Of a stretch of DNA of 64,000 nucleotides, positions 6,763 through 33,018 are shown piece after piece. The stretch lies in contig CAZDDW010000002.1 in NCBI GenBank assembly GCA_964504365.1, positions 53,246-117,245 of the forward strand, written 5' to 3'. The first letter of the stretch is position 1; the number at the start of each line of letters is the position of its first letter. This DNA comes from an uncultured Gammaproteobacteria bacterium. GTDB taxonomy: Bacteria; Patescibacteriota; Patescibacteriia; UBA9934; CAZDDW01. The position numbers and the translations under genes are program-made. The notes beneath the pieces were generated by a model, which was not told where the DNA came from, ran no database searches, and was given only the letters and a program-made list of their open reading frames with translations.

Positions 6763-8517
6763 CTAGGCTTGGTCTGCCGGCTGTTCCGAACTGGCCTCGG
6801 CTTCCTTCTCGGCCGCAGGTGCCGGTTCGGAAGGCTTGGCCTCGGTCTCGGCACCACTGGAGTCCGGTGCTTCGGCCGCAGGCTTACGAGGCCTACGGGG
6901 CCGACGCCGACTTCGCTTGCGCGGTGCCGGCTCCTCGGAACCTTCCTCAGCCGCTGACTCGGCTTCGGCTTCGGCCCTGGCTTCCTGGATCCGATCGACC
7001 AGTTGGTCGACCTGTTCCGAATCCACCAGACACCTGGCCGCCTTGATCAAGACGGTCGCCCGGAAACCCATGATTCCGGGATGAACACGCCCAGCCCAAC
7101 CACCACGACGCACGGCCTTGTAGCCGGTGTCATGTCCGCGGTCGAGCTGATCGAAGCTCACACCGAGCATGAGCTCGAGCTTGGCCAGGATCGTATCGGC
7201 ATCGGCATCGTCCTCGAGACCCAGAACCGTCAAGGCCTGGTATCTCTCGGGAACGCCGCTACCACGAACACTGAAGAGGAATTCCCCCTTGCCAAGAGCC
7301 AGCTTGATCGCGATTGCCCGTGCTTCACGCAAGAGCGCCTTGCGCACCTTGCGTCCGTCGGACGAGCTCGGATCACCAGACCACCTTGCGCTGCGCATGG
7401 CCTGGAAAGCCACATCTGAGGCATGGTCTGCCTGAAGCTGCTCGGACTTGATGACCAGAGCCGCATCGAACAGATCAGCCACCTCACCCTTGCCAGCACT
7501 CATGGTCTTGCCGACCAGAGCCATGACGTAGATCTTCACACGACCGCCGTCAGGCTGGGGAATCCAAACCTGGTTGTTGTACTTGGTCAGACCTGTCATG
7601 ACCAGCTCACGCCGGGCATCCTCGATGACCTGCAAACGCTCTTTGCGCCCCTGGTCAGAACTCGGATCACCCGGGAAGCCAGCATTGATCATGACCTGGA
7701 AGACCGGATCGTCAGCGCCTGGATCTCGAACATCGCTCAAGGCCTTGGCCCGCGCATCGACTGCGTTCGAACTGGTCTTGTCCGATTCGGAATCGAGTCC
7801 GAACATTTCCCAGCAGCTCATGAACGTACCAGTGCGTGCCACGATCGATCCCGGGGGACAGATCAGGGCTTCGGCCTTGGACTCATCGATCTTGACCGTG
7901 CCATCGTTGAACTCGCCGGCATCGACCATCTGCGCAGTTGCCCGCGCAGTGGCGTGGATCAAGCCAGGGTGCATCACCTTGAACATGATCGGAACCTGGG
8001 AACGATCCTTGACCGCACCGGCCTCGATCTCGTCGTCGTAGTACGGGGCCTCGTTCTGAGGACCGCGCCAGAGAACCTCTGCACCACGGAAATCACCGAT
8101 CCAACGCTGACCCTTCTTGGTGAAAGCGACGTAAAGGAAGTTGCGGTCAACAACCTCACCATCCAGCGCACCCTCTTCGCCGAGCCAGGTATGCTCGAAC
8201 ATCGGCCACGCCAGACTGGTGTTCCCGCGCATCGCAGACGGCTTCACAGCCACGCAGATGATCGGCGCACCCAAGCGCACCAACAGCCTGGTCGGATCCG
8301 GAATGACCACCTCGAATGTCTGGCCGCCTTCCACAGGCGTGAACTGACCAAGCACTCTTCCGCGATACAATCCATCTTCTCCCGTGGTACCAGGACCGTC
8401 GCTGCCAAAGAAGACCTGACCGTAGGAAAGATCACTCTGCCGGAAACGGTGTCCCAGCGGATGAAAAACCTCTCTGTTGATCCTGATCATCTCTTGTCTG
8501 TACATTTCGTCACTCAT
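6763..8517 (-). CDS. Hypothetical 584-aa protein from high-GC islet 1, with an internal duplication and a Lys/Arg/Pro-rich C-terminal tail
   Basis: Long ORF in a ~62% GC region, with GGAGG 7 nt upstream of ATG. Two internal segments resemble each other (SDVRDPGADDPVFQVMINAGFPGDPSSDQGRKERL and SDVAFQAMRSARWSGDPSSSDGRKVRK). The C-terminus (PRKRSRRRPRRPRKPAAEAP, followed by an acidic stretch) looks like a histone-H1-like disordered tail. A hairpin plus TTTTACTTTTG terminator follows downstream on the minus strand (~6700-6740). Confidence 0.6.
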   Translation of the reverse strand: MSDEMYRQEMIRINREVFHPLGHRFRQSDLSYGQVFFGSDGPGTTGEDGLYRGRVLGQFTPVEGGQTFEVVIPDPTRLLVRLGAPIICVAVKPSAMRGNTSLAWPMFEHTWLGEEGALDGEVVDRNFLYVAFTKKGQRWIGDFRGAEVLWRGPQNEAPYYDDEIEAGAVKDRSQVPIMFKVMHPGLIHATARATAQMVDAGEFNDGTVKIDESKAEALICPPGSIVARTGTFMSCWEMFGLDSESDKTSSNAVDARAKALSDVRDPGADDPVFQVMINAGFPGDPSSDQGRKERLQVIEDARRELVMTGLTKYNNQVWIPQPDGGRVKIYVMALVGKTMSAGKGEVADLFDAALVIKSEQLQADHASDVAFQAMRSARWSGDPSSSDGRKVRKALLREARAIAIKLALGKGEFLFSVRGSGVPERYQALTVLGLEDDADADTILAKLELMLGVSFDQLDRGHDTGYKAVRRGGWAGRVHPGIMGFRATVLIKAARCLVDSEQVDQLVDRIQEARAEAEAESAAEEGSEEPAPRKRSRRRPRRPRKPAAEAPDSSGAETEAKPSEPAPAAEKEAEASSEQPADQA

Positions 8518-8722: not shown

Positions 8723-9739
8723 ATGGTCCCTGCAGACGAACGAGAAACGATCGATGACGAGACTCAGATGGATATCAGGGTCGTAGAAGCGAGTATCAGC
8801 CCCTGGGTTGATGATCTACGAACCAATTTCCCTTACTGGCCGGATGAGGATGACGGTGAACAGCCACCAACGTTCACCCAGGCCAGGGAAGAGGACGCCG
8901 CGGATGAACGCTTCCGAGAGCTTTGCGATGATTCTGGTCTAGCTGCTGATCTGATCATCATCGTTCTGGAAGGGATCGATACGGACCTGGAAACCGATCC
9001 TGTGCCGGAAGACCTGTTCCAGGAAGCTCGGAATCGGATCGAGGCAGAAGACGACAGCCTCACCGTTCAGCTGATTGACATTGCTCTGCGCTACCTCTTG
9101 TACACGGATTCGAACAACGAAGACGACAACAGAAAACACGCAGCAGCAATCAAGGATGCCTTGAGTCAGCCGGAAGCATCAAAGGAGGCGAATGAACCTG
9201 CGAAAACCGCAGCTGAGCCGAAGACTCCGGCCAAGCCCGGGGTTCCACCCAAGCCTTCGATGCCTGGAGAAGGTGGTGCAGAAGGTGGTAGGCCCGGAGC
9301 TTTGCGGAAGACTGATGGTACGCAAGAGCAGCCTCCTCCTCCCGAGAAGACTCCACCGGAGGCAACTACTCGAACTACTCAGCCGGCAGAACCGCCACCA
9401 CCGACGCCCCCAGATGGCTCGAGCGATGACGACCTCAAGGCAGAGCCACGCTACGTAGAGCTGCTTGCAGCTGCACAGCGAAACATCACCAAAGCAAGAG
9501 CTGGAGAAGCTCCGGCTCAGCTCTGGCTGGATGTGACTGTGTCAGACTTGCGTAAGGGAACAGGCGTTGGTTCACGAACCCACCCCAACCCGATTTACGC
9601 AAGACTGGCTGCTGATGGGACGACCATCCGAACAGGCTTCGATCACAGGGACAAGAACGCCCGTGCCAGAAGCCTTCTGGTCCGAGAAATCCAGGCTCTG
9701 GTCACTCAGGCCGGCCTGAAGATCAACCGCCTGCGTTAG
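8723..9739 (+). CDS. Hypothetical acidic protein with a Pro-rich linker (islet 1)
   Basis: 338 aa with a GGAGGA SD site. The N-terminus is acidic, the middle has PPKP/PPPPTPP low-complexity sequence, and a C-terminal domain follows. A TGCCGCTCAGC...GCTGGGCGGCA hairpin lies downstream at ~9750-9780. Confidence 0.6.
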   Translation: MVPADERETIDDETQMDIRVVEASISPWVDDLRTNFPYWPDEDDGEQPPTFTQAREEDAADERFRELCDDSGLAADLIIIVLEGIDTDLETDPVPEDLFQEARNRIEAEDDSLTVQLIDIALRYLLYTDSNNEDDNRKHAAAIKDALSQPEASKEANEPAKTAAEPKTPAKPGVPPKPSMPGEGGAEGGRPGALRKTDGTQEQPPPPEKTPPEATTRTTQPAEPPPPTPPDGSSDDDLKAEPRYVELLAAAQRNITKARAGEAPAQLWLDVTVSDLRKGTGVGSRTHPNPIYARLAADGTTIRTGFDHRDKNARARSLLVREIQALVTQAGLKINRLR

Positions 9740-9868: not shown

Positions 9869-10195
9869 ATGAGTGAGGACGCAACCATATCGCAGATCCA
9901 AGATGCAGAAAAAGCTGCTGCAGATCGGATCCTTGAAGCAGAAAAAAGTGCTCAACAAACTATAAATCAGCTTGAGGACGGATATCAAGACAAGTTGTCA
10001 CAAGTGAAAGAAAGTCTTGATTCAGAACGAGGGCAAGTTGTAGAAAAAATCCAAAAACAAGCTACAGCCTTTAAAGAGGAGATTTGTGAACAATCAAAAA
10101 AAGAGATGACTGCGATGAAGAAGGATTCTGAAGGCAGAATCAGTTCAGCTGCTGGATACGTAAAAGATCAGTTTCTAGAATATGTCCGTCAGTAA
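9869..10195 (+). CDS. V/A-type ATP synthase peripheral-stalk subunit (G/H-like)
   Basis: A 108-aa charged coiled-coil protein that is the first gene of the V-type operon. Its size and position match ntpF/atpH. Confidence 0.5.
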   Translation: MSEDATISQIQDAEKAAADRILEAEKSAQQTINQLEDGYQDKLSQVKESLDSERGQVVEKIQKQATAFKEEICEQSKKEMTAMKKDSEGRISSAAGYVKDQFLEYVRQ

Positions 10196-12143
10196 AATGG
10201 CAAAAATCCGGTTGACTGCGGTAAAAGATGTTTATGATCAGGTGATCGACATCTTGCATTCTGATGGGGTAATCGAGATAGAACAGGTTGAGGCTGAAGA
10301 AAAGGACCTTTATCGTCCTGATTCAAAAGCTGAATATTGGCAAACTAACGTAAAGTTTGCCCTGGATTTGCTCAAGGACTATCAAGATGAAGAGAAAAAG
10401 AGCTTTTTAGACAAATTGAAAAGTGCAAAGCAGGAAGTTGATAATAGTGATATAGAGAAACTACTTTCTGAGTTTGATTACAAAAAAGTTGTTGCTGAAC
10501 TAGAAAATTTGGACAAAGAGCTTAACGCTGCTAAAAACAAGGTTTCTCAGTACAATAAAGAAAAGAAGTCGCTGCGCGAATGGCAAGGGCTGCCAAAATT
10601 AGAAACGCAAGATCTGCGTTTTGTTGTTTTTTATACCGGAACTGTGCCAGTGATTCATTTCGAAGCCTTTCAGAAAGCAGTGCTTGATCTTGGGACATCA
10701 GAATTGATTCGAATCAATGAAAGCGAGAATGAGATCCGTTTAGTTTTGATCGCTAGCAAAGATCTGGAAACCAAGCTAACAGAACTGTTCGAAACCCATG
10801 ACTTCAAGACGGTTGAGTTGGATCTAAACGGGGCAGGGGATATTGATCAGCGTTTGACTAAGCTGGATGAATTGATTGGGTTTGATCAGAAGGTGATGAC
10901 TGAAGTTCAGGACAAAATTAAAAAATTCGCACCGCATCTGAGCAAATTTCAGATCTTGTATGATTATTTAACATGGAAAAAAGAGCAGGATGACGCTTCT
11001 CGTAAAGCTTTGGTTACAGGCGAGACTGTTAGTTTGATTGGGTGGCTACCACAGAATAATATTGCAGATGTAAGTAAGCATATCGACACAGTAACCGATC
11101 AGTACATGATCGAGGAACTTGAGATCAAAGAAGATGAGAACATTCCAATCGTTCTGAGCAATCCAAAAGCAGTCACACCATTTGAATCTGTAACTGAAAT
11201 TTATGGCGCGCCATTATACAACGAACCGGATCCGACTATTTACTTAGCACCATTCTTTATTGTTTACTTTGCGCTTTGTTTAACTGACGCTGGATATGGA
11301 ATTTTGCTTTCGCTTCTTGCTTTCGCTGCTTTGAAACTAATGAAACCAAAAGGTTCAGCCAAGAAACTGATCCAGCTATTAATTGCTGGTGGAGTGGCCA
11401 CGTTTGTTGCTGGAGCGCTCTTCGGTGGTTGGTTTGGTATCGTAATTGCGGATCTGCCAAACGGTATAATCAAGGACGCGGTAAATGCAGTTCGTATCAT
11501 CGATCCTGTACAAAATCCAATGACCGTACTGATCATGTCACTGATTCTGGGTTTTATTCAGTTAGTTATTGGAAACTTGGTTGGTATGTTCTGGAAGATT
11601 CGTCATGGACAGGTCATGGATGGAATACTTGATAGTGGAGTCTGGGCTTTGTTCCTGCTGATGATTGGTTTCTGGATCACAGTTAAAGTCGAAGTCCTGC
11701 CAGTATCACTAATAACTTTTGCTAATGTTGTTCTACTGCTCGGAATCCTAATGCTGGTCGCAACACAAGGGCGTCAGCACAAGAACGTGTTCGTAAAAAT
11801 TGGAGCTGGTGTAGCAAGTTTGTATGGTCTGGTTGGATATTTAAGCGACGTGCTTAGTTACTCACGTTTGTTAGCACTTGGACTTTCAACCGGAATTATC
11901 GCCATGGTTGTTAACTTGGTTGCTGATCTGTTTGCTGGAATGATCCCGTTTGTTGGTTGGTTGGTCTGGATCCTGATTATTGTTGGCGGTCACTTATTTA
12001 ATTTGATTATCAATGTACTTGGAGCTTTTATTCACGCAGGACGTCTGCAGTATGTCGAATACTTCCCGAAATTCCTTGTCGGTGGTGGACGAAGATTCAA
12101 GCCGTTGGTAAAAGAAGCTAAATATATAACTATTAAAAGTTAA
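10182..12143 (+). CDS. ntpI: V/A-type ATP synthase subunit I (a-subunit)
   Basis: 653 aa. The N-terminal hydrophilic coiled-coil region is followed by ~7-8 TM helices. It is in operon context. Confidence 0.85.
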   Translation: MSVSKMAKIRLTAVKDVYDQVIDILHSDGVIEIEQVEAEEKDLYRPDSKAEYWQTNVKFALDLLKDYQDEEKKSFLDKLKSAKQEVDNSDIEKLLSEFDYKKVVAELENLDKELNAAKNKVSQYNKEKKSLREWQGLPKLETQDLRFVVFYTGTVPVIHFEAFQKAVLDLGTSELIRINESENEIRLVLIASKDLETKLTELFETHDFKTVELDLNGAGDIDQRLTKLDELIGFDQKVMTEVQDKIKKFAPHLSKFQILYDYLTWKKEQDDASRKALVTGETVSLIGWLPQNNIADVSKHIDTVTDQYMIEELEIKEDENIPIVLSNPKAVTPFESVTEIYGAPLYNEPDPTIYLAPFFIVYFALCLTDAGYGILLSLLAFAALKLMKPKGSAKKLIQLLIAGGVATFVAGALFGGWFGIVIADLPNGIIKDAVNAVRIIDPVQNPMTVLIMSLILGFIQLVIGNLVGMFWKIRHGQVMDGILDSGVWALFLLMIGFWITVKVEVLPVSLITFANVVLLLGILMLVATQGRQHKNVFVKIGAGVASLYGLVGYLSDVLSYSRLLALGLSTGIIAMVVNLVADLFAGMIPFVGWLVWILIIVGGHLFNLIINVLGAFIHAGRLQYVEYFPKFLVGGGRRFKPLVKEAKYITIKS

Positions 12144-12147
12144 AATT

Positions 12148-12621
12148 ATGGGATTAGGAATTGCTCTTGCGGTATGTGGTGCCGCATTAGCCATCGGTCT
12201 TGCCGGAGCTGGTTCAGCCCTAGGAATGGGTGCAGCTGGACAAGGTGCCGCTGGTGTTGTTTCTGAAGATCCAGAAAAGTTTGGTAAAGCATTGCTTTTC
12301 GAAGCTCTTCCAGGAACACAGGGAATCTACGGATTCTTGGCTGCGATCATGATCTTGCAGAAAATTGGTCTGCTTGGTGGTGAAGTTGTGGCAATAAGTC
12401 CAGAAACTGGTTGGGCCATTTTATTTGCTGGTTTACCAATCGCTATTACTGGTTTAAGTTCTGGTTGGATGCAGGGACGTGTATCTGCTGCAGGTATGGG
12501 TGTGCTAGCAAAACGACCAGGTGAAGCTGGAAAAGCAATCATTCTTTCAGCCATGGTAGAAACCTATGCTGTGCTTGGTTTGCTGATTACCATTCTCTTA
12601 GTCACTAGTATTTCCGTTTAA
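12148..12621 (+). CDS. ntpK: V/A-type ATP synthase proteolipid subunit K
   Basis: 157 aa with four TM helices and a Gly/Ala-rich proteolipid sequence (duplicated c-subunit type). Confidence 0.85.
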   Translation: MGLGIALAVCGAALAIGLAGAGSALGMGAAGQGAAGVVSEDPEKFGKALLFEALPGTQGIYGFLAAIMILQKIGLLGGEVVAISPETGWAILFAGLPIAITGLSSGWMQGRVSAAGMGVLAKRPGEAGKAIILSAMVETYAVLGLLITILLVTSISV

Positions 12622-12622
12622 T

Positions 12623-13186
12623 ATGGCATTGGCCGAAATTCAAAAACACATTCAAACCAAGGCCGATGAGCAGATCGCTAAGATTCAGGCTGCTTCAAGT
12701 AAGCAGGTTGAAGAGAGTAAAGAAGGGTGGGAAAAGAAGTTGGTTGATGAGCGCGAGCGAGTGCTGGCCGAGATCAATCGCAATGCTGATTCAAAGTTGA
12801 CTCAGGCAAAATTCAAGATCCGCGAGCGAATTAATGCTGAGAAGTTAAAAGCTAAGCAGGCTCAGATCAACGAAGTTTATAGCAAAGCCCTAGAAGCTTT
12901 GTCAGAATTATCAGATTCTGAATATACTGAGCTGATGGTTAAGCTGCTTAAAAGCCTAAAGGGAACCGAAGGCAGCCTGTCGACCTGTGCCAAACGCAAG
13001 GCTGAACTTGAACAAGCTTTGTCAAAAGCCGGCCTTAAAGTTGATATCAAAGATGACCTAGACTCTGTTGGTGGTTTTATCTTCCACACGGAAGCGACTG
13101 ATATCGACAATACATTTGAGACCTTGATTGACCAGACTAAGGAACAAACCTTAATTGATGTTCATGCAAAATTATTTAACACTTAG
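12623..13186 (+). CDS. ntpE: V/A-type ATP synthase subunit E
   Basis: 187 aa with an N-terminal coiled coil. It follows the K subunit, as expected from operon synteny. Confidence 0.75.
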   Translation: MALAEIQKHIQTKADEQIAKIQAASSKQVEESKEGWEKKLVDERERVLAEINRNADSKLTQAKFKIRERINAEKLKAKQAQINEVYSKALEALSELSDSEYTELMVKLLKSLKGTEGSLSTCAKRKAELEQALSKAGLKVDIKDDLDSVGGFIFHTEATDIDNTFETLIDQTKEQTLIDVHAKLFNT

Positions 13187-13191
13187 ACTCT

Positions 13192-14190
13192 GTGACTCAC
13201 GACGCCTACATCTACGCTAGCTCGAAGATTCGTTCGCTTGAACAGCACTTGCTTTCTGATTCGGACATGACACGTGTAATCGATGCCAAAACGCCAGACA
13301 TTGCTTTTAAGGCTTTTAATAGTCTTGATTATGCTGGTGAGCTTTTGGATTTAGAAGCCAAAGATTATCGTGTGGCAATGGATCGCAAAATGGCTCGGCT
13401 GAAAAAAGTGTTACATCATATTGTTCCTGACGAAGATCTTCATCGCTTGTTGTTCTTGGAGCGTGATTACTTTAATATTCGTTTCTTGTTAAAGACAAAG
13501 GCAGCAGGTGAAGATGCAAAGGATCTTTCAGAGCTATCACCTGGACTAGTTAAGGTAGATCAGCTCAAACGTTATATTATTGATGAACTGGAATCAGACA
13601 TCGACATTAAAGTTCAAGGTGATATCAATGATCTGCGATCTGAAATTGGGGAAGCAACTGATCCAGAAAAGATTGCCAACTTGGTTAACCAGAAAATGAA
13701 CAAACGCAATCGCGAACTAACCGAAAAGATTGACAATGCATTTATCACTGATCTTTATCGCTATCTTGCAGACATGAACAACATTCGCTTATTCCTGCGT
13801 GCTCGGCGTCTTGAAAAGAGTAAGGGTTGGTTTATGGAACGAGTTAATCAAACTGGAAATATTCCAGCGGATGTTTACGACAACATCTACGATAACAGTG
13901 ATGATGAGTCTTTACTAACACAGATGCGTGTTTTCTTGCCAGGTATTATCGAACCTGAGCTTGAAGAGTTTGCTAAGGACAAAGCTATCTGGCACATCGA
14001 GCTTGCACTACACAATGTGATTATCGAACACTTGCAAAAGGCAAAGATCATTGGTTATGGACCAGAAGTTGTGGTTGCTTACTTCTTTGCTAAGAAGTAC
14101 GCCATTCGCAACTTAAGTACAATCATGGCTCTTAAGTTCGGTGAGATTGAACCATTGGAAATCAGAAAACATTTAGTTAACGCTTACTAA
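13192..14190 (+). CDS. ntpC: V/A-type ATP synthase subunit C (V0 d)
   Basis: 332 aa and all-helical. It sits between E and F, as in characterised ntp/atp V-type operons. Confidence 0.75.
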   Translation: MTHDAYIYASSKIRSLEQHLLSDSDMTRVIDAKTPDIAFKAFNSLDYAGELLDLEAKDYRVAMDRKMARLKKVLHHIVPDEDLHRLLFLERDYFNIRFLLKTKAAGEDAKDLSELSPGLVKVDQLKRYIIDELESDIDIKVQGDINDLRSEIGEATDPEKIANLVNQKMNKRNRELTEKIDNAFITDLYRYLADMNNIRLFLRARRLEKSKGWFMERVNQTGNIPADVYDNIYDNSDDESLLTQMRVFLPGIIEPELEEFAKDKAIWHIELALHNVIIEHLQKAKIIGYGPEVVVAYFFAKKYAIRNLSTIMALKFGEIEPLEIRKHLVNAY

Positions 14191-14191
14191 T

Positions 14192-14518
14192 ATGCAGGAC
14201 TACAAAATAGGCATTATCGGAACCGAAGAGGCTGTGGCCGGATTTATGGCCTTGGGTGTTACTTGTTTTCCAATAACTGAAGACGATCAAATTAAAGAAA
14301 TCATTAATCAAATTAAAAACGACGCGTTTGCAGCAATCTTCATCACAGAAGACTGGGCAATTCGCGTTCGTGACCAAATAGATGAAGCTTTTCGGGATGC
14401 AGCTCTACCGGCCGTGGTGACTGTTCCGTCACCCGGAGGAGCCACTAAGGCTGGGCTCGAGAATCTGAAGAAAATTGTTGAGCAAGCTGTCGGAAGCGAC
14501 ATTCTATTTAACAAATAA
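14192..14518 (+). CDS. ntpF: V/A-type ATP synthase subunit F
   Basis: 108 aa; the N-terminus [19 protein letters not shown] is typical of subunit F. Confidence 0.8.
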
Positions 14519-14522
14519 TTAT

Positions 14523-16274
14523 ATGGAGCAAAAACAAGGAAGCATTATTAAAATCTCTGGACCATTAGTTGTTGCCAAGGACATGAACGAGGCTCGTATG
14601 TACGACGTGGTTAAAATCGGTGAACAAAAGCTGGTTGGAGAGATTATTAAACTTGAAGGCGATAAAGCTTCGATTCAGGTTTACGAAGAAACAACAGGGT
14701 TGAAGCCAGGTGATCCGGTTTTCATGACTGGTATGCCACTTTCTGTGGAGCTTGGTCCTGGAGTTTTGAAGTCAATTTACGACGGTGTGCAGCGTCCTTT
14801 AAAGGACATCGAAGCTGTAGCACAGTCACCATACATTACTAAAGGAATCGATGTTCCTGGAATCGACCGTACAAAAGAATGGGAATTCAAGGCTGAGATG
14901 AATGATGGTGAGCCGGTTAAAGAGGGCGACGTACTTGGAACTATTCAGGAAACAGAATTGATTGTTCACAAAGTAATGGTGCCACCTGGTGTTAATGGAA
15001 CTGTTTCAGGAATCAAGAGTGGTAAGTTCAAAGTCGAGGATGTTGTCGCAACAGTTGATGGTAAAGAAATTACTTTGCTGCAAAAATGGCCAATTCGTGT
15101 ACCACGTCCTTACAAAGAAAAACTTACACCAAAGACACCATTGATCACTGGAACCAGAATCTTTGATACATTTTTCCCAATCGTAAAAGGTGGTGCTGGT
15201 TGTATTCCTGGCCCTTTTGGAGCAGGAAAGACAGTTACTCAACAATCACTAGCCCGTCTTTGTGACGCGCAGATTATTGTTTACATTGGTTGTGGAGAGC
15301 GTGGAAACGAGATGACTGAGGTACTTGATGAGTTCCCAGAACTGATTGATCCTACTTCAGGAAAGCCTTTGATGGAACGAACTGTGCTAATCGCAAACAC
15401 CTCAAACATGCCCGTGGCTGCTCGAGAGGCGTCAATCTACACTGGTATCACAATTGCTGAATATTACCGTGATATGGGCTATAACGTGGCCCTGATGGCT
15501 GACTCAACATCACGTTGGGCTGAAGCTTTGCGTGAAATTTCTGGACGTCTTGAGGAAATGCCTGGTGAGGAAGGATACCCTGCATACCTTGGATCACGTA
15601 CTGCAGCTTTCTACGAACGTGCTGGTTACGTTGACTGTCTTGGAGAAGATGATCGTAAAGGATCGCTCACTGCGATTGGTGCGGTTAGTCCTCCGGGTGG
15701 TGACCTTTCAGAGCCTGTGACTCAGAACACATTGCGTGTGACTAAAGTTTTCTGGGGACTGGATGCCAAGCTGGCATATCGACGACACTTCCCAGCGATT
15801 AACTGGTTGAACAGCTACTCTTTGTACAATGACAACGTTGAAGATTTCTCACGTCAAAACTATGGTGAGGATTGGCCAGAGATGAAAACTCAGGCAATGG
15901 GAATTTTGCAAGAAGAGGCAAGTTTGCAAGAGATTGTAAAGCTGGTTGGACTTGATGCTTTGTCTAGCAAAGAGCAGGTTACACTTGATACTGCTAAGGC
16001 GTTGCGAGAAGACTACTTGCAGCAGTTTGCTTTTGATGAAGTTGATGGATACACACCTCCGAAACGCATGCACTTGATGTTAAAAGCAATTCTAACATTT
16101 CACGAAGCCGCTTCTGATGCTGTAGACAAAGGTGCATCAGTCAAAGATATTACGGCTCTTGATGTAAAAGATAAAATTGCACGTGCCAAGACTGAGACTG
16201 ATGAATCAAAGCTGGCTGCACTTCAAAAAGAATCGCAGGAGCAGATTAAGTCAACCATTAACGCTGCTGCATAA
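14523..16274 (+). CDS. ntpA: V/A-type ATP synthase catalytic subunit A
   Basis: Walker A motif GPFGAGKT is present. The start is taken at MEQKQG immediately after the F stop. Length is ~584 aa. Confidence 0.9.
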
Positions 16275-16278
16275 ACAT

Positions 16279-17661
16279 ATGGAAAAACGATACAAGACAA
16301 TCAAAGAAGTCCAAGGGCCGCTCGTTATCGTTGAGGGCATCGAGGACGTTATGTATGAGGAAATGGTTGAGGTAGAACTTGGTGATGGAAGCAAGCGCAA
16401 AGGACGTGTACTGGAAATTACTGACAAGCACGCTGTGGTTCAGATGTTTGAAGGAACCAGCGGAGTTGATGTTGATAACTCAACAGCCACATTCCTAGGT
16501 AAGACCATGCAAATCGGTGTTTCAACTGACATGCTTGGACGTGTGTTCTCAGGAATCGGTGCTGCTAAGGATGGCATGCCAGATGTGATTCCAGAAAAAT
16601 ACTTGGACATTAACGGTGCACCAATCAACCCGTACTCACGAGAAATGCCTAAAGACTTTTACCAGACTGGTATCTCAACTATCGATGGACTAAACACTTT
16701 GGTGCGTGGACAAAAGCTGCCAGTGTTCTCTGGTGCTGGACTTCCACACAACGAGATCGCGGCGCAGATTGCGCGTCAGGCCAAGGTGATTGAAGAGGGA
16801 ACTAATGAGGAAGATTTCGCTGTTGTGTTCGGAGCCATGGGTGTAACCTTTGAAGAATCAGAATTCTTTATTAACGAGTTTAAGAAAACTGGAGCCATCG
16901 AACGTGCCACTTTGTTTATCAACTTAGCTGATGATCCTGTTGTTGAACGAATCACGTTGCCGCGCCTAGCTCTGACAACCGCAGAATATCTAGCCTTTGA
17001 AAAAGGTAAGCACGTGTTGGTGATCCTGACTGACTTGACCAACTATTGTGAAGCCTTGCGTGAGGTTTCTGCTGCTCGAAAAGAAATTCCTGGACGACGT
17101 GGTTACCCTGGATACCTTTACACTGACCTTTCAACTATTTACGAACGAGCAGGAAAGATGAAAGGCCGAAAGGGAAGCGTGACCCAGATTCCTATTCTAA
17201 CCATGCCTGAAGACGATATCACTCACCCAATCCCTGACTTGACTGGATACATTACTGAGGGACAGATCATTGTTTCACGTGACCTGTACCGACAAGGAAT
17301 TTATCCTTGTGTAAACGTGTTACCATCCTTGTCACGTTTAATGAAAGCCGGAATCGGTGAAGGACAGACTCGTGGTGATCACTCTGGTGTTGCTAACCAG
17401 CTCTTCGCTGCATACGCCACCGGAAAAGAAGCTCGTGAGCTGGCTGTGATTCTTGGTGAATCTGCTTTATCAGATGCTGAGCGTGCATACATTAAGTTTG
17501 CTGACGCATTTGAGAAAGAGTTTGTAACACAGGGCAAGGACGAGGATCGTGGGATTGAAGAAACCTTGAAGCTTGGTTGGAAACTAATGTCAATCTTGCC
17601 AAAACGAGAATTGAAACGTGTTAAGGAAGAAGAAATCGACAAGTATTTACCGAAAAATTAA
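16279..17661 (+). CDS. ntpB: V/A-type ATP synthase subunit B
   Basis: Non-catalytic B-subunit homology (GAMGVTFEE...[14 protein letters not shown]). The start is reassigned to ATG 16279, right after the A stop. Confidence 0.9.
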
Positions 17662-17782
17662 AAATAACCAATGACCAAATCACAATGATCAAAAAAATGA
17701 CCAAATAACCAATGTTCGAAAATTAGATCATTGTTTATTATCTCGGTCATTGATTATTGATCATTGGTCATTCACTGCCCAT
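17662..17782. promoter_or_regulatory. Array of direct and inverted AATGACCAA/TTGGTCATT half-sites between ntpB and ntpD
   Basis: ACCAATGACCAAAT occurs twice in direct orientation (17666-17679 and 17701-17714). GGTCATTG (17745-17752) and ATCATTGGTCATT (17762-17774) lie in inverted orientation just before the ntpD ATG. Confidence 0.5.
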
Positions 17783-18415
17783 ATGGCTAACGCACTAGGC
17801 GTCAACCCAACCCGACAAGAACTGCTAAAACTCAAGGTTAAACTTAAAACCTCTGAGCGTGGTTATAAGTTACTCAAAGACAAGCGTGATGGTTTGATGA
17901 AACAGTTCATGGAGATCATTCGTGAAGCCAAGGATCTGCGTGAAAAAGTTGAAGCTGATCTGTCAGTTGGATTTCAAGCTTACTTGTTTGCTTCTGCTAA
18001 GACTTCGCCAGATCTGTTGAAAAGCGCTTTCTTATTGCCTTCGATGAAAACTTATCTGCAGGCTGACGTGAAGAATGTCATGTCTGTGAACGTGCCAGTA
18101 TTCGAGTACAAGGAAGAAGGCGACTTTTTGTCTTATGGATTCAGTTTTACAGCCTCAGAGCTTGATACGGCGCTGAAGAGTTTCTCAGAAAGCTTGAAAG
18201 ATATGGTTCGTCTCGCTGAGGTAGAGCATAGCGCCAAGTTGCTAGCAGAAGAGATCGAAAAAACACGTCGACGAGTAAACGCGCTTGAATACGTCTTCAT
18301 TCCAAAGATGAAAGAAACAATCAAATACATCCAGGCCAAGCTAGCAGAACAAGAACGCGGAACGATTATCACACTGATGAAGGTCAAGGATATGTTGGTA
18401 GAACAGGAGGGATAA
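17783..18415 (+). CDS. ntpD: V/A-type ATP synthase subunit D
   Basis: The N-terminus MANALGVNPTRQELLKLKVKLKTSERGYKLLKDKRDGL is typical of subunit D. This is the last gene of the operon. Confidence 0.85.
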   Translation: MANALGVNPTRQELLKLKVKLKTSERGYKLLKDKRDGLMKQFMEIIREAKDLREKVEADLSVGFQAYLFASAKTSPDLLKSAFLLPSMKTYLQADVKNVMSVNVPVFEYKEEGDFLSYGFSFTASELDTALKSFSESLKDMVRLAEVEHSAKLLAEEIEKTRRRVNALEYVFIPKMKETIKYIQAKLAEQERGTIITLMKVKDMLVEQEG

Positions 18416-18429
18416 AATAGATTAAATAG

Positions 18430-18468
18430 GCGGGGTCCCTTGACCCCGCTTTTTGTTTATGCTAAGTT
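18430..18468 (+). terminator. Intrinsic terminator of the ATPase operon, fused to an islet promoter
   Basis: GCGGGGTC-cctt-GACCCCGC hairpin followed by TTTTTG. The TTGACC inside the 3' arm, followed by 17 nt and TGcTAAGTT, forms a promoter for the downstream islet gene. Confidence 0.7.
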
Positions 18469-18496
18469 CTGGCCAGGACATTGAAAGGAGACACTT

Positions 18497-19162
18497 GTGA
18501 AAATCGACGGAAACGAATTCGTTGTTGCTTCTTCTGACATCGGACGCATCAGAGCTGGGTACATCTTCATGCGCCGGGCTGAGCGAGAGGGCTGCCGGGT
18601 CGAAGACCTGGACAAGCTTCAGGTTCGTTTCCAAAACGGACCCGAGACAAGCTCGTATACCCAGGTGGAACTCCAGCACCTGCTCGACCTGATGGGCCAA
18701 TCTTGCAGCGAAACCGACGTCCTGCGTGAACTCGGGATCGTGCCCGGTTACCGCGGGCATCTGCCCCCGGCCTGGAAGGCCGCCTACCTCTACCGCGGTG
18801 ACCAGGAGTTCCTGCTCGGTGACATCTGGCTCGACGAGTCTGCTGTTTGCCGAATCGCCCGGCGTCTGCACAGCATGCAGCAGGACGAAGAAGAGCACTG
18901 CGTGACCGTTGTCCTGCGCGAGACCTTGCCCGAAGAACTCTTCGACAAGCCGGACCAACTCACGCCCGAACAGGTACGTGAGCATGCCGCCATCGTCATC
19001 AGGCATGGCGAAATCATCTTCAGCGTCCCGTCCCACCGTGACGGCTGGGGCCCGCGTGGATTCGGTGAGCTGGCCATCAGTGCACTGAATGGCAGCTTCC
19101 TGGCCCTACTCGAACACGCCAAGTTCACCTCCACCCGCCTGCACACGCCGGCAAGCTCCTAG
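18497..19162 (+). CDS. Hypothetical protein, paralog 1 of an islet-2 pair (GTG start)
   Basis: 221 aa in high-GC sequence, with an AAAGGAG SD 7 nt before GTG. It shares domain order and motifs with the next gene (…F(Q/E)NGP…Y..V.LQ.LLD.M..SC.E.D(V/I)LR…(I)VPG(Y/F)…). A hairpin plus T7 terminator lies at 19169-19195. Confidence 0.65.
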   Translation: MKIDGNEFVVASSDIGRIRAGYIFMRRAEREGCRVEDLDKLQVRFQNGPETSSYTQVELQHLLDLMGQSCSETDVLRELGIVPGYRGHLPPAWKAAYLYRGDQEFLLGDIWLDESAVCRIARRLHSMQQDEEEHCVTVVLRETLPEELFDKPDQLTPEQVREHAAIVIRHGEIIFSVPSHRDGWGPRGFGELAISALNGSFLALLEHAKFTSTRLHTPASS

Positions 19163-19254
19163 CACTTCAGCGACCACACTGGTCGCTTTTTTTATATCTT
19201 GACATAGCACTTAGTCCATGCTAAGTTCTGCTCAGCACCTTGAAAGGAGCGAAG

Positions 19255-19911
19255 ATGGAACCCACGCCAAACGGAGTTCACATTCTCGATACTGACATCG
19301 GCAATGTTTCTGCGCTAGACGTTTTCCGTCTCGACGCCGAGACCGAGCGTGAGCGCGACCTGGAGCACCCGGATCACATCCTGGTCACCTTCGAAAACGG
19401 CCCTGGGCCAGCTGAGTACGACCGTGTTGCTCTTCAGCTTCTGCTCGATCGCATGAGCATGTCCTGTGGTGAGGGCGACATCCTGCGCAAGATCAAGATC
19501 GTTCCTGGCTTCATGGGCATAACGTTTCCAGCCCACTGGGAGGACGTGGTCCTGTTCGATGGTAATGGCAATTACCTGGTCCACCCTGTCTCGCTCGACG
19601 AGGTCGCTGTGGTCCTTATCGCCAAGAGTCTGCATGACGAAAAGCTGTTCGGTGAGCGCCATGCCGTAGTCGTACTGCGTCGCTCAGACCTGCCCGAGGA
19701 CTGGAAGCCCGGTGATTCGATCGAGGCCGAGTTCATGATGAACACAGCCACCATCGTCATCAACCACAACAACGTCTACCTGCTTTCGTCTGGTGCCCAA
19801 CACTACAAGGCGATCAGCTTCGGTGACGTTCACATGGCCAAGCGCCAACAGCGTGACTCGCACTCCTTCACCATGTACACCTCGACCCGTTTGCGGCCGC
19901 CGATGCCGTAA
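19255..19911 (+). CDS. Hypothetical protein, paralog 2 of an islet-2 pair
   Basis: 219 aa with an AAAGGAG SD. The upstream leader ATGCTAAGTTCTG…TTGAAAGGAG is nearly identical to that of paralog 1. A CCCGC…GCGGG+T5 terminator lies at 19920-19940. Confidence 0.65.
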   Translation: MEPTPNGVHILDTDIGNVSALDVFRLDAETERERDLEHPDHILVTFENGPGPAEYDRVALQLLLDRMSMSCGEGDILRKIKIVPGFMGITFPAHWEDVVLFDGNGNYLVHPVSLDEVAVVLIAKSLHDEKLFGERHAVVVLRRSDLPEDWKPGDSIEAEFMMNTATIVINHNNVYLLSSGAQHYKAISFGDVHMAKRQQRDSHSFTMYTSTRLRPPMP

Positions 19912-19979
19912 CGCACACACCCGCCTCAGCGCGGGTTTTTAATTCGTGGAAAAGATGGGGATATTAAAAACAAAAACCC

Positions 19980-20008
19980 TTGACACGAATGCCTAGGATC
20001 GATACGCT
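19980..20008 (+). promoter_or_regulatory. Sigma70-like promoter (TTGACA-17-TACGCT) with no ORF downstream
   Basis: TTGACA is at 19980-19985 and TACGCT at 20003-20008. No ORF of 60 aa or more follows on either strand before the terminator at ~20232. Confidence 0.5.
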
Positions 20009-20015
20009 GGAAGTG

Positions 20016-20262
20016 AGCCGGGGATCGCGCTAGTTTAGTTAAGTTCAAGAGGGTAGGACTGTGAAAACAGAAACCGATCTGCGGGAGGAACAAAGCACTG
20101 AAAGAGACGGGGATCGCATAGGAAGCTATAAAGTCACTGCAACTCTACGAGTGTCATGACCTGATAAGGTACAGCCTTTCAAAGGGGGAAGACCCTGAAG
20201 AACACCTGGATTGGAGAACTCGGCTCAAACAAAAAACTGACCCTGCGGTCGGTTTTTTGTAA
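20016..20262 (+). ncRNA. Candidate ~245-nt small RNA (unclassified)
   Basis: Bounded by the promoter above and by a hairpin terminator ACTGACC-ctgc-GGTCGGT+TTTTTTGT at 20234-20262. The complementary ends GAGCCG (20017-20022) and CGGCTC (~20222-20230) can close a long stem. No coding potential was found. Confidence 0.4.
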
Positions 20263-20265
20263 TCT
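20228..20265. terminator. Bidirectional intrinsic terminator (A-run/hairpin/T-run)
   Basis: CAAACAAAAAACTGACCctgcGGTCGGTTTTTTGT reads as a hairpin with a U-run on both strands. It would serve the plus-strand sRNA and the minus-strand gene 20294-20611. A second hairpin GACAGGC-gtaa-GCCTGTC lies at 20270-20288. Confidence 0.6.
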
Positions 20266-20293
20266 GAGGGACCGACAGGCGTAAGCCTGTCAT

Positions 20294-20611
20294 TTAAGTT
20301 CCTTGCTCGACTCGCTGCAATGCATGTAACTCAGCGTTGAGCTGCTGAACACCAGGATGCTGATCAGTATAACTATAGCCTTTTAGCAAATCTCGATCAC
20401 CTGTAATACTGCGTCGAGCATCTTCAATTTTAGCTTTTCGTGTAGCTCCTTCAAGGCCTTCAAATCGCTGTGCAAACACGATCATGGCCTGCTGAATGGC
20501 TGCGCTGTCTAGTGTATCAGCCGAAACCATGTCTGGTTGTGATTCAACCTCAGGCACCATGCTGGCCGCAGCTTCTTTTTGAGCTGCTCGTTTACCAAAA
20601 AATTCTAACAT
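20294..20611 (-). CDS. Hypothetical 105-aa protein (islet 2)
   Basis: ORF with an upstream TTGACA-17-TAAGAT promoter on the minus strand at ~20640-20670. Confidence 0.45.
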   Translation of the reverse strand: MLEFFGKRAAQKEAAASMVPEVESQPDMVSADTLDSAAIQQAMIVFAQRFEGLEGATRKAKIEDARRSITGDRDLLKGYSYTDQHPGVQQLNAELHALQRVEQGT

Positions 20612-20698
20612 AAAGTATCAGTTAATTTTTGTTTATCTTAGGCTGTTTGGGGTCAAGTGTCAAGGGTGACTAAGAAGGGAATGACACACTTCAGTGTG

Positions 20699-21052
20699 TC
20701 ATTTGACAGACTTACGTCTGTCAGTCCCACAAAGAAACAACACCCCAATCACCAGTAACGGCAATGTCGTGACAAGTAAAGAGAACAGCATTTCTTCAAG
20801 ATTGAACAGGAAAATCGGGAGCATAGCCAGCAGCACAAACATCCACCCGCCGATACCCGGTCGTATCCAAGAAACCCATAATGCGCCCAGGATCAATAAC
20901 GTCGGGACGTTGTGCATGAATAACGCAACAATCATCTCGTACCAGTGATAATCTTCTGCAAAAACATCGAGGGACATTAGGGCAAAGAAGACGGCGAGCA
21001 AGATAACCAGAACTCGCGGAAGCCATTTGAGAACTTTGTTTAGCATACTCAT
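20699..21052 (-). CDS. Hypothetical small membrane protein (3-4 TM helices), islet 2
   Basis: Hydrophobic ~117-aa ORF. The start is reassigned to MSMLNK so that the upstream palindrome and the TTGTGTCAAG…TGcTAGAAT promoter become non-coding. Two perfect hairpins, ATGACACAC-ttca-GTGTGTCAT and TGACAGAC-ttac-GTCTGTCA, sit at and within the 3' end (20681-20723). Confidence 0.55.
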   Translation of the reverse strand: MSMLNKVLKWLPRVLVILLAVFFALMSLDVFAEDYHWYEMIVALFMHNVPTLLILGALWVSWIRPGIGGWMFVLLAMLPIFLFNLEEMLFSLLVTTLPLLVIGVLFLCGTDRRKSVK

Positions 21053-21067
21053 ACATTCTAGCACACC

Positions 21068-21093
21068 TGTCACGTCGCTCGCGAGCGACGTGA
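21068..21093. promoter_or_regulatory. Perfect 26-bp palindrome GTCACGTCGCTCG|CGAGCGACGTGAC between the -35 and -10 elements (candidate operator)
   Basis: Exact reverse-complement symmetry, read directly. It lies between divergent genes 20699-21052(-) and 21160-21489(+). Confidence 0.7.
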
Positions 21094-21159
21094 CTTGACA
21101 CAATCAACTTTATCTGATAAGTTACTTCCTTCTCAACGAAGACAAAGGAGGGAAGTACT

Positions 21160-21489
21160 TTGGAACTCAGACATCGAGAATTGGTGAGAATAAACCTGGA
21201 AGGCGCCACGATCATCGAGCATCGTCCGGATTGCCCAGTGGCTGGCAAGATCGACACCGCAAGCTTGGCTGCTGTGATCGGGATGAGCTGGAGACACCTC
21301 GAAGACGGAACGTGGCGTGACACCGTGTTCACGACCGATTCCTGGCGATTCGAGCGACAGGGCGACGTGATCTTCTTCCACCGCACCGAACCCAACGATG
21401 TGTCACGTGGTTTCGATCAGCCCGACCTCACGACCGATCTGTACACCATCGTCCTGCCGAACACGCGGGAAGTCAGCCCTGGCTGGTAG
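21160..21489 (+). CDS. Hypothetical 109-aa protein (TTG start), islet 2
   Basis: AAGGAGG SD 7 nt before TTG, high-GC codon usage, and a terminator at 21514-21538. Confidence 0.55.
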   Translation: MELRHRELVRINLEGATIIEHRPDCPVAGKIDTASLAAVIGMSWRHLEDGTWRDTVFTTDSWRFERQGDVIFFHRTEPNDVSRGFDQPDLTTDLYTIVLPNTREVSPGW

Positions 21490-21513
21490 GACCGTTTACC
21501 TCAGACTCCACTT

Positions 21514-21570
21514 GACCCACCTCGGGTCTTTTTCTTTTGGGTTGACAATTTGTGTAGATTCAAATATATT
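21514..21570 (+). promoter_or_regulatory. Terminator-promoter module copy 1
   Basis: GACCCacctcGGGTC hairpin, then TTTTTCTTTTG, then TTGACA (21543-21548), 16 nt, and TATATT. Confidence 0.7.
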
Positions 21571-21605
21571 AACGCTGGTTCCTGAACAAAATTACAGGAG
21601 AAATC

Positions 21606-21944
21606 ATGCTTCCAGGCAACCGGCCAACAGGAAGAAGAATGACAAAACAAGGTCCGCAAGAAGCCAGAAGACTCCCGGACCAAGTCAGCGGCCCTCTGCT
21701 GTACTCGTATCTCCAAGGCATAGCCCGCGCCATGACTGACGGGGCAGTATTGATCAACAGTACGACAACCACTTTCTCGCGTGCCAGCGTCATTTCTGTT
21801 CTCAAGGCACAGAACATCCATGAGAGTGACATCGCCGAGGCCATCACGTACTGCTTGGATAATGATCTACTCATCGAAGAACACGATGGCTTCCACATGA
21901 CCACCTTCGGGCTGACCAGTACTCGCCCCAAGCGCCGGTTATAG
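21606..21944 (+). CDS. Hypothetical small protein, paralog 1 of a tandem islet-2 pair (possible winged-helix DNA-binding fold)
   Basis: 112 aa. Its C-terminal ~75 aa align with the next gene: LLYSYLQGIARAMTDG…FSRASVISVLKAQNIHESDIAEAITYCLDNDLLIEEHDGFHMT against SLYSRLWDVATAMSAG…FPRASIVAVLQSMGIREERVERAIQYCLRNGLLEERDDGFHLV. Confidence 0.6.
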   Translation: MLPGNRPTGRRMTKQGPQEARRLPDQVSGPLLYSYLQGIARAMTDGAVLINSTTTTFSRASVISVLKAQNIHESDIAEAITYCLDNDLLIEEHDGFHMTTFGLTSTRPKRRL

Positions 21945-21994
21945 CAAAACCAATGGACACACACTGGGCCTAGCCCCATCTAGACCTAAATCTC

Positions 21995-22054
21995 GACCCG
22001 TAAACTGGGTCTTTTTTCTTTTGGGTTGACAAAATACGTGGAAATTGGTTTACT
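21995..22054 (+). promoter_or_regulatory. Terminator-promoter module copy 2
   Basis: GACCCgtaaactGGGTC hairpin, then TTTTTTCTTTTGGGTTGACAA, 17 nt, and TTTACT. Confidence 0.7.
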
Positions 22055-22093
22055 TGTCCCAGAACGATCATTCATACACGAAAGGGGCAACAA

Positions 22094-22438
22094 ATGCTCT
22101 CAGACAACTATCCCAATGAATGCAGGGAACGGCAGCAACCGCGACGAGACCCTCGGCCCAGGGGTCCCATGGTCGACAGCTTCTCGCTGTACTCTCGGCT
22201 GTGGGACGTAGCCACGGCCATGTCCGCAGGCGGCAAGGGGTTCCCCAGGGGAACCGAGATCGCTTTCCCACGCGCCAGCATCGTGGCCGTGCTCCAGTCT
22301 ATGGGTATTCGTGAAGAGCGAGTCGAACGGGCCATCCAGTACTGTCTGCGCAACGGCCTGCTCGAGGAGCGTGATGATGGTTTCCACCTGGTCCAGAGCG
22401 AGCTGTCGTCCTTCCGCATGACGATGCGCCGCATCTAG
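22094..22438 (+). CDS. Hypothetical small protein, paralog 2 of the tandem pair
   Basis: 114 aa with an Arg/Pro-rich N-terminus. The C-terminal domain is paralogous to 21606-21944. Confidence 0.6.
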   Translation: MLSDNYPNECRERQQPRRDPRPRGPMVDSFSLYSRLWDVATAMSAGGKGFPRGTEIAFPRASIVAVLQSMGIREERVERAIQYCLRNGLLEERDDGFHLVQSELSSFRMTMRRI

Positions 22439-22450
22439 ACCACACACCTC

Positions 22451-22510
22451 GACCCAACCCTGGGTCTTTTTCTTTTGGGTTGACAAACCGCGAGATGGAA
22501 GGTAAGTTCT
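22451..22510 (+). promoter_or_regulatory. Terminator-promoter module copy 3
   Basis: GACCCaaccctGGGTC hairpin, then TTTTTCTTTTGGGTTGACAA, 17 nt, and TAAGTT. Confidence 0.7.
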
Positions 22511-22526
22511 AGACAAGGAGGCCCTC

Positions 22527-22736
22527 ATGAGAGAACCGCAACCTGCAAGCGTGCTCCGAGCCTGCTTAGCAGCAAATCAAGGCTGCAGAATCGAATACTT
22601 CGATGATGGAGGATCGATCGAACTTCAGCCTAGATTTGTCCTGGAGGACATGCATGTCCGCGGTCGTACGTGCAAGCGCGGAACGCGTGTATCTGTTCCT
22701 TTATTCGAACCGATCAAGGGCGTCACTCCTCTCTAG
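22527..22736 (+). CDS. Hypothetical 69-aa protein (islet 2)
   Basis: AAGGAGG SD 6 nt before ATG. A GAGTCTTTAAAGGCTC+TTTTTCTTTTG terminator follows, running into the TGgTATAAT extended -10 of the helicase gene (~22745-22780). Confidence 0.5.
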   Translation: MREPQPASVLRACLAANQGCRIEYFDDGGSIELQPRFVLEDMHVRGRTCKRGTRVSVPLFEPIKGVTPL

Positions 22737-22871
22737 CACCACACCTGAGTCTTTAAAGGCTCTTTTTCTTTTGTGGTATAATGGGGCCGGAAAATAAGCT
22801 TGTCGCACGTGGCACGTCGCATGTCGTCTCCAGAACGACGCGCGACCTCCGACGCGCGACGCACACCACAT

Positions 22872-32939: not shown

Positions 32940-33018
32940 CACCCCACACCTGTGGGGCTTTTTCTTTTCACAAATTTATGCTAAGCTCAGCGTGCTGTTT
33001 TACAAAAGGGAGGACGCA

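Follow-up and report, generated by a model that had tools for sequence, protein, structure and literature searches.

A tandem pair of paralogous orphan genes in fused terminator-promoter cassettes behind a V/A-type ATPase operon

Here we describe two tandem genes in a 64,000-nucleotide (nt) stretch of contig CAZDDW010000002.1 (positions 53,246 to 117,245; hereafter the window, whose coordinates are used wherever no other locus is named), which stand directly behind a V/A-type ATPase (V-ATPase) operon and encode paralogous proteins of an unclassified family. Each gene forms a transcription cassette of its own, and the two represent subfamilies, A and B, that recur in related lineages; we hold this combination of cassette architecture and ancient paralogy to be very probably correct. 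To the favoured explanation as a whole, namely that the pair encode cytosolic accessory proteins that are expressed at high level, evolve under weak constraint or by diversification, and do not belong to the V-ATPase, we give a probability of about 0.45. Its components differ in weight: an accessory role outside the V-ATPase is likely, and high expression, as suggested by the promoter and leader sequences, is an even bet.

Paired cassettes and their shared promoter module

Both open reading frames (ORFs) proposed in the initial annotation were found in place, and public assemblies carry the same two gene calls (P0001, P0011). Upstream of the pair lies a complete V/A-type ATPase operon (10182-18415; gene order I, K, E, C, F, A, B, D), and the features from its end to that of the second cassette are as follows, with lengths in base pairs (bp) or amino acids (aa) and isoelectric points (pI) calculated for the products.

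18428..18451, + strand: intrinsic terminator of the V-ATPase operon; 10-bp stem with 7 G-C pairs, T-run; the 3' arm (18440-18451) holds the gene 1 -35 element
18440..18468, + strand: gene 1 promoter, as read from sequence; -35 TTGACC at 18440-18445, 17-nt T-rich spacer, extended -10 TGcTAAGTT at 18460-18468
18466..18496, + strand: gene 1 dyad and leader; imperfect GTTCTGG/CCAGGAC at 18466-18479, leader of about 22 nt with TTGAAAGGAG at 18481-18490
18497..19162, + strand: gene 1, A-type; GTG start, 221 aa, pI 5.4
19169..19197, + strand: gene 1 intrinsic terminator; 8-bp stem and T7, hairpin at 19169-19187
19199..19227, + strand: gene 2 promoter; -35 TTGACA at 19199-19204, 17-nt spacer, extended -10 TGcTAAGTT at 19219-19227
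19225..19254, + strand: gene 2 dyad and leader; imperfect GTTCTG..CAGCAC at 19225-19238, TTGAAAGGAG at 19240-19249
19255..19911, + strand: gene 2, B-type; ATG start, 218 aa, pI 5.2
19919..19946, + strand: gene 2 intrinsic terminator; hairpin at 19919-19936 followed by a T-run

The two proteins align end to end in BLASTP with 36% identity over 225 columns (E = 4e-34), well above the 15% that the initial annotation had taken as the floor for a real relationship, and the shared motifs that it quoted recur in our alignment. Its picture of near-identical promoters and leaders is likewise borne out, as positions 18439-18490 and 19198-19249 align with 77% identity over 52 nt. Within the 64-kb window TGCTAAGTTC and TTGAAAGGAG occur twice each, solely at these two sites and with a spacing of 12 nt in both, and GGAG lies 5-6 nt ahead of the start codon of both genes. 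Stem-loops with T-runs were found 3' of gene 1 and gene 2, in keeping with the claim that each gene has a terminator of its own, and TTGACC of gene 1 does lie in the 3' arm of the V-ATPase operon hairpin.

Judged by consensus, both promoters have the anatomy of sigma-70 promoters: the -35 elements match at 5 of 6 positions (gene 1) and 6 of 6 (gene 2), the spacer is 17 nt long, and TGn precedes a -10 element, TAAGTT, that matches at 4 of 6. A strict promoter scan left out the gene 1 promoter because TAAGTT is a weaker -10 match. The position of transcription initiation (about 18475 for gene 1) was derived from spacing.

The same module, TTGAC-17 nt-TGyTAAGTT-~12 nt-TTGAARGGAG (consensus CTTGACCTnGTTTTTTnTTTnTGCTAAGTTCTnTnCAGAACATTGAAAGGAG), is kept in nine cassettes from five lineages, and it stands upstream of family members in three lineages other than that of the window despite near-saturated synonymous sites. 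In six of the nine cassettes the -35 element overlaps the hairpin of the preceding terminator at its 3' arm, with the T-tract as the spacer; this overlap is also found in the related loci that we label L007, L098 and L009, where the outer stem bases differ and the pairing is kept. In locus L011, whose upstream gene is divergently oriented, the hairpin is absent and the promoter retained. Since the module also precedes an unrelated 85-aa gene in L009, it belongs to the island or the clade and is not specific to the family.

Five of eight family promoters contain a 14-bp dyad, GTTCT-N4-AGAAC, across the -10 element and the expected start site. Both L007 copies (7126-7139 and 7972-7985) and the L098 copy (3771-3784) are perfect, and each window copy carries one mismatch. 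In so small a sample the dyad could represent an operator. A LexA-type SOS box was considered and rejected: the exact GTTC-N6-GAAC occurs once elsewhere in the window, which is the chance level, and the arrangement is unlike known LexA boxes. Searched for in metagenome contigs, the exact promoter-leader pattern gave four matches in unrelated contexts, which we judged to be chance.

Taken together, these elements would allow a simple order of events. Transcription of the V-ATPase operon would stop at the hairpin 18428-18451, and the same DNA would supply RNA polymerase with a -35 element (TTGACC, in the hairpin's 3' arm) and, through the T-tract, with the 17-nt spacer ahead of the extended -10. 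Initiation near 18475 would then yield a leader of about 22 nt with a strong Shine-Dalgarno sequence in TTGAAAGGAG, followed by the coding sequence and a private terminator. Gene 2 would repeat the design, its promoter beginning immediately after the gene 1 terminator, and both proteins might be made abundantly, independently of the ATPase and probably constitutively.

An unclassified protein family with two old subfamilies

The initial annotation had also described the protein family as one without a known assignment, and this holds across profile, sequence and fold searches, none of which gave a usable match. A profile of both proteins retrieved 8 proteins among 5.8 billion clusters, and HMMER, run exhaustively over 1.84 billion representatives, gave 14 matches at E<=0.001, of which 12 are true members (E<=1e-10). 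The two weakest, P0018 and P0019, are repeat proteins of about 1000 aa that share only the short repeat LLDQAVEAY..LEV..K.DLPQDW and were judged unrelated. The HMMER family members combined with P0003, P0005 and P0011 make up the 14-member alignment used below. Against Pfam/NCBIfam no match rose above a curated cut-off and no family recurred among the 14 members; the best match, DUF3006, was confined to one member and scored 15.6 bits (E=0.019; cut-off 32.3). PADLOC-DB gave no family at E<=1 for either protein or for six other island ORFs, the best PHROGs hit (E=0.053) covered a short stretch and was not usable, and tblastn found no match for gene 1 in phage records or for gene 2 in plasmid records. 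No relatives were detected among IMG/VR viral contigs, by sequence search of the PDB, or with back-translated family patterns in genome and metagenome scans.

Both products are predicted to be acidic, cytosolic, two-domain alpha/beta proteins of the same topology. The AlphaFold model of gene 2, built from 14 sequences, has a mean predicted local distance difference test score (pLDDT) of 86.9 and a predicted template-modelling score (pTM) of 0.75, and that of gene 1, from 8 sequences, a pLDDT of 74.5; the two models share one order of elements, an N-terminal beta-beta-alpha-beta-beta-alpha-alpha unit followed by a C-terminal unit rich in beta-hairpins. Foldseek reached best E-values of 0.4-0.8 in the PDB and 0.37 in BFVD, and its hints of CBS domains, beta-grasp proteins and ricin A chain were set aside as noise (probability <=0.33, template-modelling score <0.2). 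The pI is 4.7-5.4 in 12 members and 6.3-6.4 in two, hydropathy is negative in 13 of 14, and the members' N-termini, read by eye, show no obvious signal peptide or membrane segment.

Six residues are invariant in all 14 members, both paralogues included: Glu72, Leu124, His125, Glu132, His134 and Gly190 (gene 1 numbering). They give the whole family a common signature, Glu...Leu-His-x6-9-Glu-x-His, beside which Leu-Pro 144-145 and the Thr-Arg of the C-terminal (S)TR(L)RP show almost no variation. The earlier hint of metal binding through conserved cysteines and histidines thus divides in two. The cysteines vary, with C70 of the SCxExD motif replaced in several members and the cysteine of 'HC' mostly confined to the A subfamily, and metal binding based on them is ruled out by this lack of conservation across the family; the histidine part survives in that the invariant His and Glu are compatible with a metal or catalytic site, a possibility that we regard as tentative. 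Hypermutation by a diversity-generating retroelement was also rejected, as the divergence covers the whole protein and a reverse transcriptase is absent.

These same data bear on whether the two ORFs code for protein at all. Long minus-strand ORFs at 18422-19036 and 19315-19662 show that GC-rich DNA here yields spurious reading frames, and the pair could in principle be non-coding artefacts of the same kind. The conservation of protein sequence and invariant motifs across 14 divergent members, correctly spaced Shine-Dalgarno sites, a confident AlphaFold model and differences between orthologues that follow the coding pattern (third > first > second codon position) leave that notion a negligible probability.

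The members fall into two types, marked by YRGDQE...LTPEQVR (A) and FDGNGNYLVH (B). Gene 1 is 44-48% identical to A-type proteins elsewhere against 38% to gene 2, gene 2 is 52-53% identical to B-type proteins elsewhere, and the A clade has a bootstrap of 62% in a neighbour-joining tree. Their arrangement in the loci is as follows.

Directly 3' of atpD: window, A then B; L098, A then B; L007/L008, B then A (swapped order); JGI 3300072015, A (P0004) and an unnamed gene of 284 aa that is probably B
3' of atpD after two other genes: L009, a single B
Adjoining lepA: L011, a single A

The initial annotation had proposed looking for the same pair in other genomes, and tandem A+B pairs are indeed present in at least two further lineages (L007/L008 and L098); because such pairs occur in several lineages, the duplication is older than those lineages. 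The family is confined to one clade with genomes of about 1 Mb, probably within Patescibacteria, the candidate phyla radiation (CPR). For the V-ATPase B subunit the closest reference genomes are the metagenome-assembled genomes L014-L016 (CAZIDX010000001.1, CAYVLY010000001.1 and OZ246408.1), at 86-87% identity, and the next are Patescibacteria at 71-73%. L014-L016 are themselves labelled 'uncultured Gammaproteobacteria', one of them being a chromosome of 1.0 Mb, and their next nearest V-ATPase B sequences are from Patescibacteria; the 'Gammaproteobacteria' label is probably wrong. We therefore take the source to be probably a CPR-type bacterium, an uncertain assignment because V-ATPase genes are prone to transfer.

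Compared with its flanks, the family diverges very fast. Between lineages its proteins are 28-53% identical, against 95-96% for atpB and 89-95% for atpD; in the comparison with L007, the one locus for which these values are given, the helicase downstream of the island reaches 89% and the island's DUF7670 protein 62%. Synonymous differences at conserved codons range from 0.39 to 0.48 in atpB/atpD; in the family they range from 0.43 to 0.62, with the closer orthologue pairs at 0.43-0.55. At second codon positions atpB/atpD differ by 0.01-0.04 and the family members by 0.29-0.43. Similar synonymous and far larger second-position differences mean that the family is about as old as its flanks and either far less constrained or diversifying; the synonymous sites are near saturation, which prevents a real estimate of the ratio of nonsynonymous to synonymous rates.

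This contrast in rate is one of several points on which the pair can be compared with the operon that it follows. Its genes might be accessory or regulatory components of the V-type ATPase, such as clade-specific assembly factors or peripheral subunits; in favour of this, they follow atpD immediately and in the same orientation in the window, L007/L008, L098 and probably JGI 3300072015. Yet parts of one machine would be expected to diverge at more similar rates, and the codon usage of the pair is sharply unlike that of the atp genes. The strong predicted terminator after atpD and the private promoters argue against co-transcription. The link also fails outside the loci just named: L014-L016 keep the operon but lack a family gene within 10 kb of atpB, the A-type gene of L011 lies by lepA in a locus where ATPase genes are absent from the 8 kb upstream, and in L009 other genes stand between atpD and the B gene. 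We consider membership in the V-ATPase very improbable.

A GC-rich hypervariable island and its other occupants

The pair opens an island of single-gene cassettes that ends at a UvrD-type helicase gene with a PD-(D/E)XK nuclease domain and whose composition sets it apart from its surroundings.

18420..22790, no strand assigned: hypervariable island of single-gene cassettes, GC-rich (53%), bounded by atpD and the UvrD/PD-(D/E)XK helicase gene

Its GC content peaks at 61%, against 40-46% in the flanks, and the pair itself has 57-61% in a genome of 44-45%. GC content at third codon positions (GC3) is 0.74 in gene 1 and 0.72 in gene 2, and 0.28-0.47 in housekeeping neighbours. The shift is a general one that extends beyond C-ending codons, as the following fractions illustrate.

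C fraction of two-fold Y-ending codons: genes 1 and 2, 0.82; housekeeping genes, 0.42
G fraction of two-fold R-ending codons: genes 1 and 2, 0.66; housekeeping genes, 0.42
A fraction of four-fold sites: genes 1 and 2, 0.09; housekeeping genes, 0.30

The island comprises at least nine separate transcription units, each with promoter-like and terminator-like sites, and the pair is followed by a non-coding RNA gene, a 105-aa ORF (- strand), a DUF7670 membrane protein (- strand), a 109-aa ORF, the genes orf112 and orf114, and a 69-aa ORF. Between relatives the distance from atpD to the helicase gene varies from 0.8 kb in L015 through 2.6 kb in L016, 4.5 kb in the window and 4.8 kb in L014 to 7.5 kb in L007, with content that differs throughout, and in L098 the next conserved gene is lepA; variation of length and content between such close relatives marks the site as a hypervariable hot spot. 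The island ORFs showed no integrase or transposase domain (farther out, some of the ORFs were scanned), and neither flanking repeats nor a tRNA gene were found at the island.

Such a site raises the question of origin. The pair and the island might be foreign, derived from a donor of high GC content or from a mobile element not yet sampled, passive or ameliorating and without a role tied to the locus. The GC and GC3 values, the generality of the codon shift, an island content that differs between relatives and the coincidence of each GC-rich patch in the window with an orphan gene lacking a Pfam match all fit this. Among about 15 billion proteins, however, no homologue was found outside the clade, and the phage, plasmid and viral collections gave nothing; the scans for integrases, transposases and flanking repeats were as negative as stated above, and the promoters are conserved and typical of the lineage. 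The family is moreover syntenic in several lineages, and its closer pairs have synonymous divergence like that of the flanks, so that any acquisition must predate the split of the lineages. Foreign origin without a local role is hence unlikely in our view; a variant with ancient acquisition and incomplete amelioration is compatible with these findings.

The remaining GC-rich patches of the window, all of them ORFs without a Pfam match, lie at 6763-8517 (-), 8723-9739 (+), 32167-33402 (+) and 52439-54842 (-), with GC of 0.51-0.60 and GC3 of 0.52-0.68. That GC-richness denotes an orphan gene looks like a genome-wide rule, with old transfer, biased conversion and selection as possible origins.

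A second tandem paralogous pair in the island, orf112 and orf114 (21606-21944 and 22094-22438, both +), encodes proteins of 112 and 114 aa with 38% identity (E=2e-18), whose C-terminal half is winged-helix-like (with only weak MCM5_C and UBA matches). Each gene is preceded by a repeated terminator-plus-promoter unit, GGGTCTTTTTCTTTTGGGTTGACAA, with repeats at 21516-21548, 22000-22032 and 22454-22486. No homologues of either protein were found in the related loci, and a role for them as regulators of the promoter module finds no support, because they lack homologues in the module-bearing L007, L009 and L098.

Behind gene 2 stands an RNA gene of about 235 nt (20014-20262, +), with a -35 element TTGACA at 19980, a -10 element TACGCT at 20003 and an intrinsic terminator at 20229-20260; the gene and the 105-aa ORF are convergent. 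Its nucleotide sequence is conserved in L009 (8171-8420), L007 (11184-11470; L007/L008) and L016 (13192-13464), loci in which neighbouring proteins are 30-60% identical, and a covariance model run on 39 loci detected the RNA in no lineage but these four, the window's included. The RNA folds better than shuffled sequences (z = -3.9), and its consensus structure has 78 pairs with 92% of cells paired; 19 pairs are changed on both sides, against 7.1 +/- 2.0 in shuffles (0/500 reaching that number) and <=6 in slid controls. An Rfam search gave no match at E<=1. A 32-aa ORF within it (20061-20159) is unlikely to be coding, because a 23-nt insertion interrupts the ORF in L007. By sequence and predicted fold we regard the gene as a candidate new structured RNA that is not obviously 6S, signal recognition particle RNA, RNase P or transfer-messenger RNA.

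The DUF7670 membrane protein (20699-21103, -; Pfam E=8e-23) has a counterpart in L007 (11772-12128, -) and is the sole island protein besides the A/B pair that is common to that locus, at 59-62% identity; a literature search found nothing on the domain. L007 also carries a gene of the 23S_rRNA_IVP family (a four-helix bundle) at 2354-2731, inserted between atpF and atpA of its V-ATPase operon, an operon with wider intergenic gaps. Where the family stands upstream of lepA instead of the helicase gene, ORFs of 69-77 aa on the opposite strand lie alongside (L098 4791-5003, -; L011 7344-7885, -), and the L098 product is Cys-rich and, by eye, zinc-ribbon-like.

Proposed role and comparison with known systems

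On the favoured explanation, A and B would be accessory proteins of the lineage, made at high level from their own cassettes. They may form an A+B hetero-oligomer around a His/Glu metal or catalytic centre, a partnership that we put forward tentatively; an obligate complex is doubtful given that L009 has only a B-type and L011 only an A-type gene. The role would be lineage-specific and would face a changing partner, whether host cell, phage or competitor. A changing partner would explain why the proteins diverge very fast while their expression signals are held constant, although we think such a role in conflict or host interaction somewhat less likely than the partnership.

Several observations count against this explanation or leave it incomplete. 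Besides the single-type loci just named, the adjacency to atpD in three, and probably four, lineages is explained only by shared ancestry of the hot spot. Promoter strength and start sites rest solely on consensus, the invariant His and Glu could have a purely structural role, and the fast divergence may reflect relaxed constraint and not an arms race. The high GC3 is left unexplained. A more ambitious version would account for it: the A/B pair would be a new fold with a His/Glu metal or catalytic centre, found in a single clade of ultra-small bacteria and part of a co-regulated, highly expressed island set (terminator-embedded promoter, operator-like GTTCT-N4-AGAAC dyad and ~235-nt RNA) that mediates host or phage interaction, with GC3 upheld by selection or biased conversion. 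We consider this version a long shot.

The setting nonetheless merits attention. Ultra-small and probably episymbiotic bacteria have genomes rich in unannotated genes and expression that is little understood, and a fused terminator-promoter-leader module could be used in this clade to recognize transcription units and genes that are likely to be highly expressed. The family is small and tractable, with a confident predicted structure and an invariant His/Glu motif as an experimental handle, and a hot spot of fast-evolving accessory genes beside a conserved operon is an expected place for functions in host or phage interaction. For the present its status is that of an uncharacterized accessory family rather than a new mechanism.

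Among known systems, one counterpart in outward form is offered by polymorphic toxin loci, whose tandem paralogous immunity genes were reportedly described by Zhang, Iyer, Aravind and colleagues in 2011-2012. Like these, the pair consists of small, acidic, cytosolic tandem paralogues in a variable region with very fast protein divergence, each behind a constitutive-looking promoter, and might by analogy form an array that neutralizes host or competitor toxins. Unlike them, it has no adjacent toxin gene or toxin domain among the neighbours in four lineages and no match to an immunity family of Pfam in the 14 members. The His and Glu that are invariant in both subfamilies resemble a binding or catalytic site more than a variable interface, and there are only two old subfamilies with stable orthology instead of open-ended arrays. 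An immunity function is therefore quite improbable, if slightly less so than membership in the V-ATPase.

In Enterococcus hirae, ntpH and ntpJ follow ntpD as extra genes at the 3' end of a V/A-type ATPase operon. Like these, the pair follows the D-subunit gene immediately and in the same orientation, but here a predicted terminator and private promoters intervene, and homology is lacking, codon usage is different and the rate of divergence is very different. Integron cassette arrays are likewise strings of short, mostly unannotated ORFs with recurring boundaries that contain hairpins; here, in contrast, the genes have their own promoters, the hairpins are terminators with T-runs and orientation is mixed, and no integron integrase domain was found in the island ORFs or in the flanking ORFs scanned, which cover part of the window.

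A further comparison is with lineage-specific orphan cassettes in bacterial hot spots, which likewise have conserved borders (here atpD with a UvrD-like helicase gene, or lepA), variable content and length, atypical composition and unannotated genes. The island differs from these in lacking mobility genes, a tRNA gene and flanking repeats, in holding a stable orthologous A/B pair, and in that every gene has its own promoter-terminator cassette. The architecture is thus already known in kind, as accessory orphan cassettes in a hot spot; what is unusual is the fusion of terminator and promoter and the stable A/B pair, whose protein family is unclassified.

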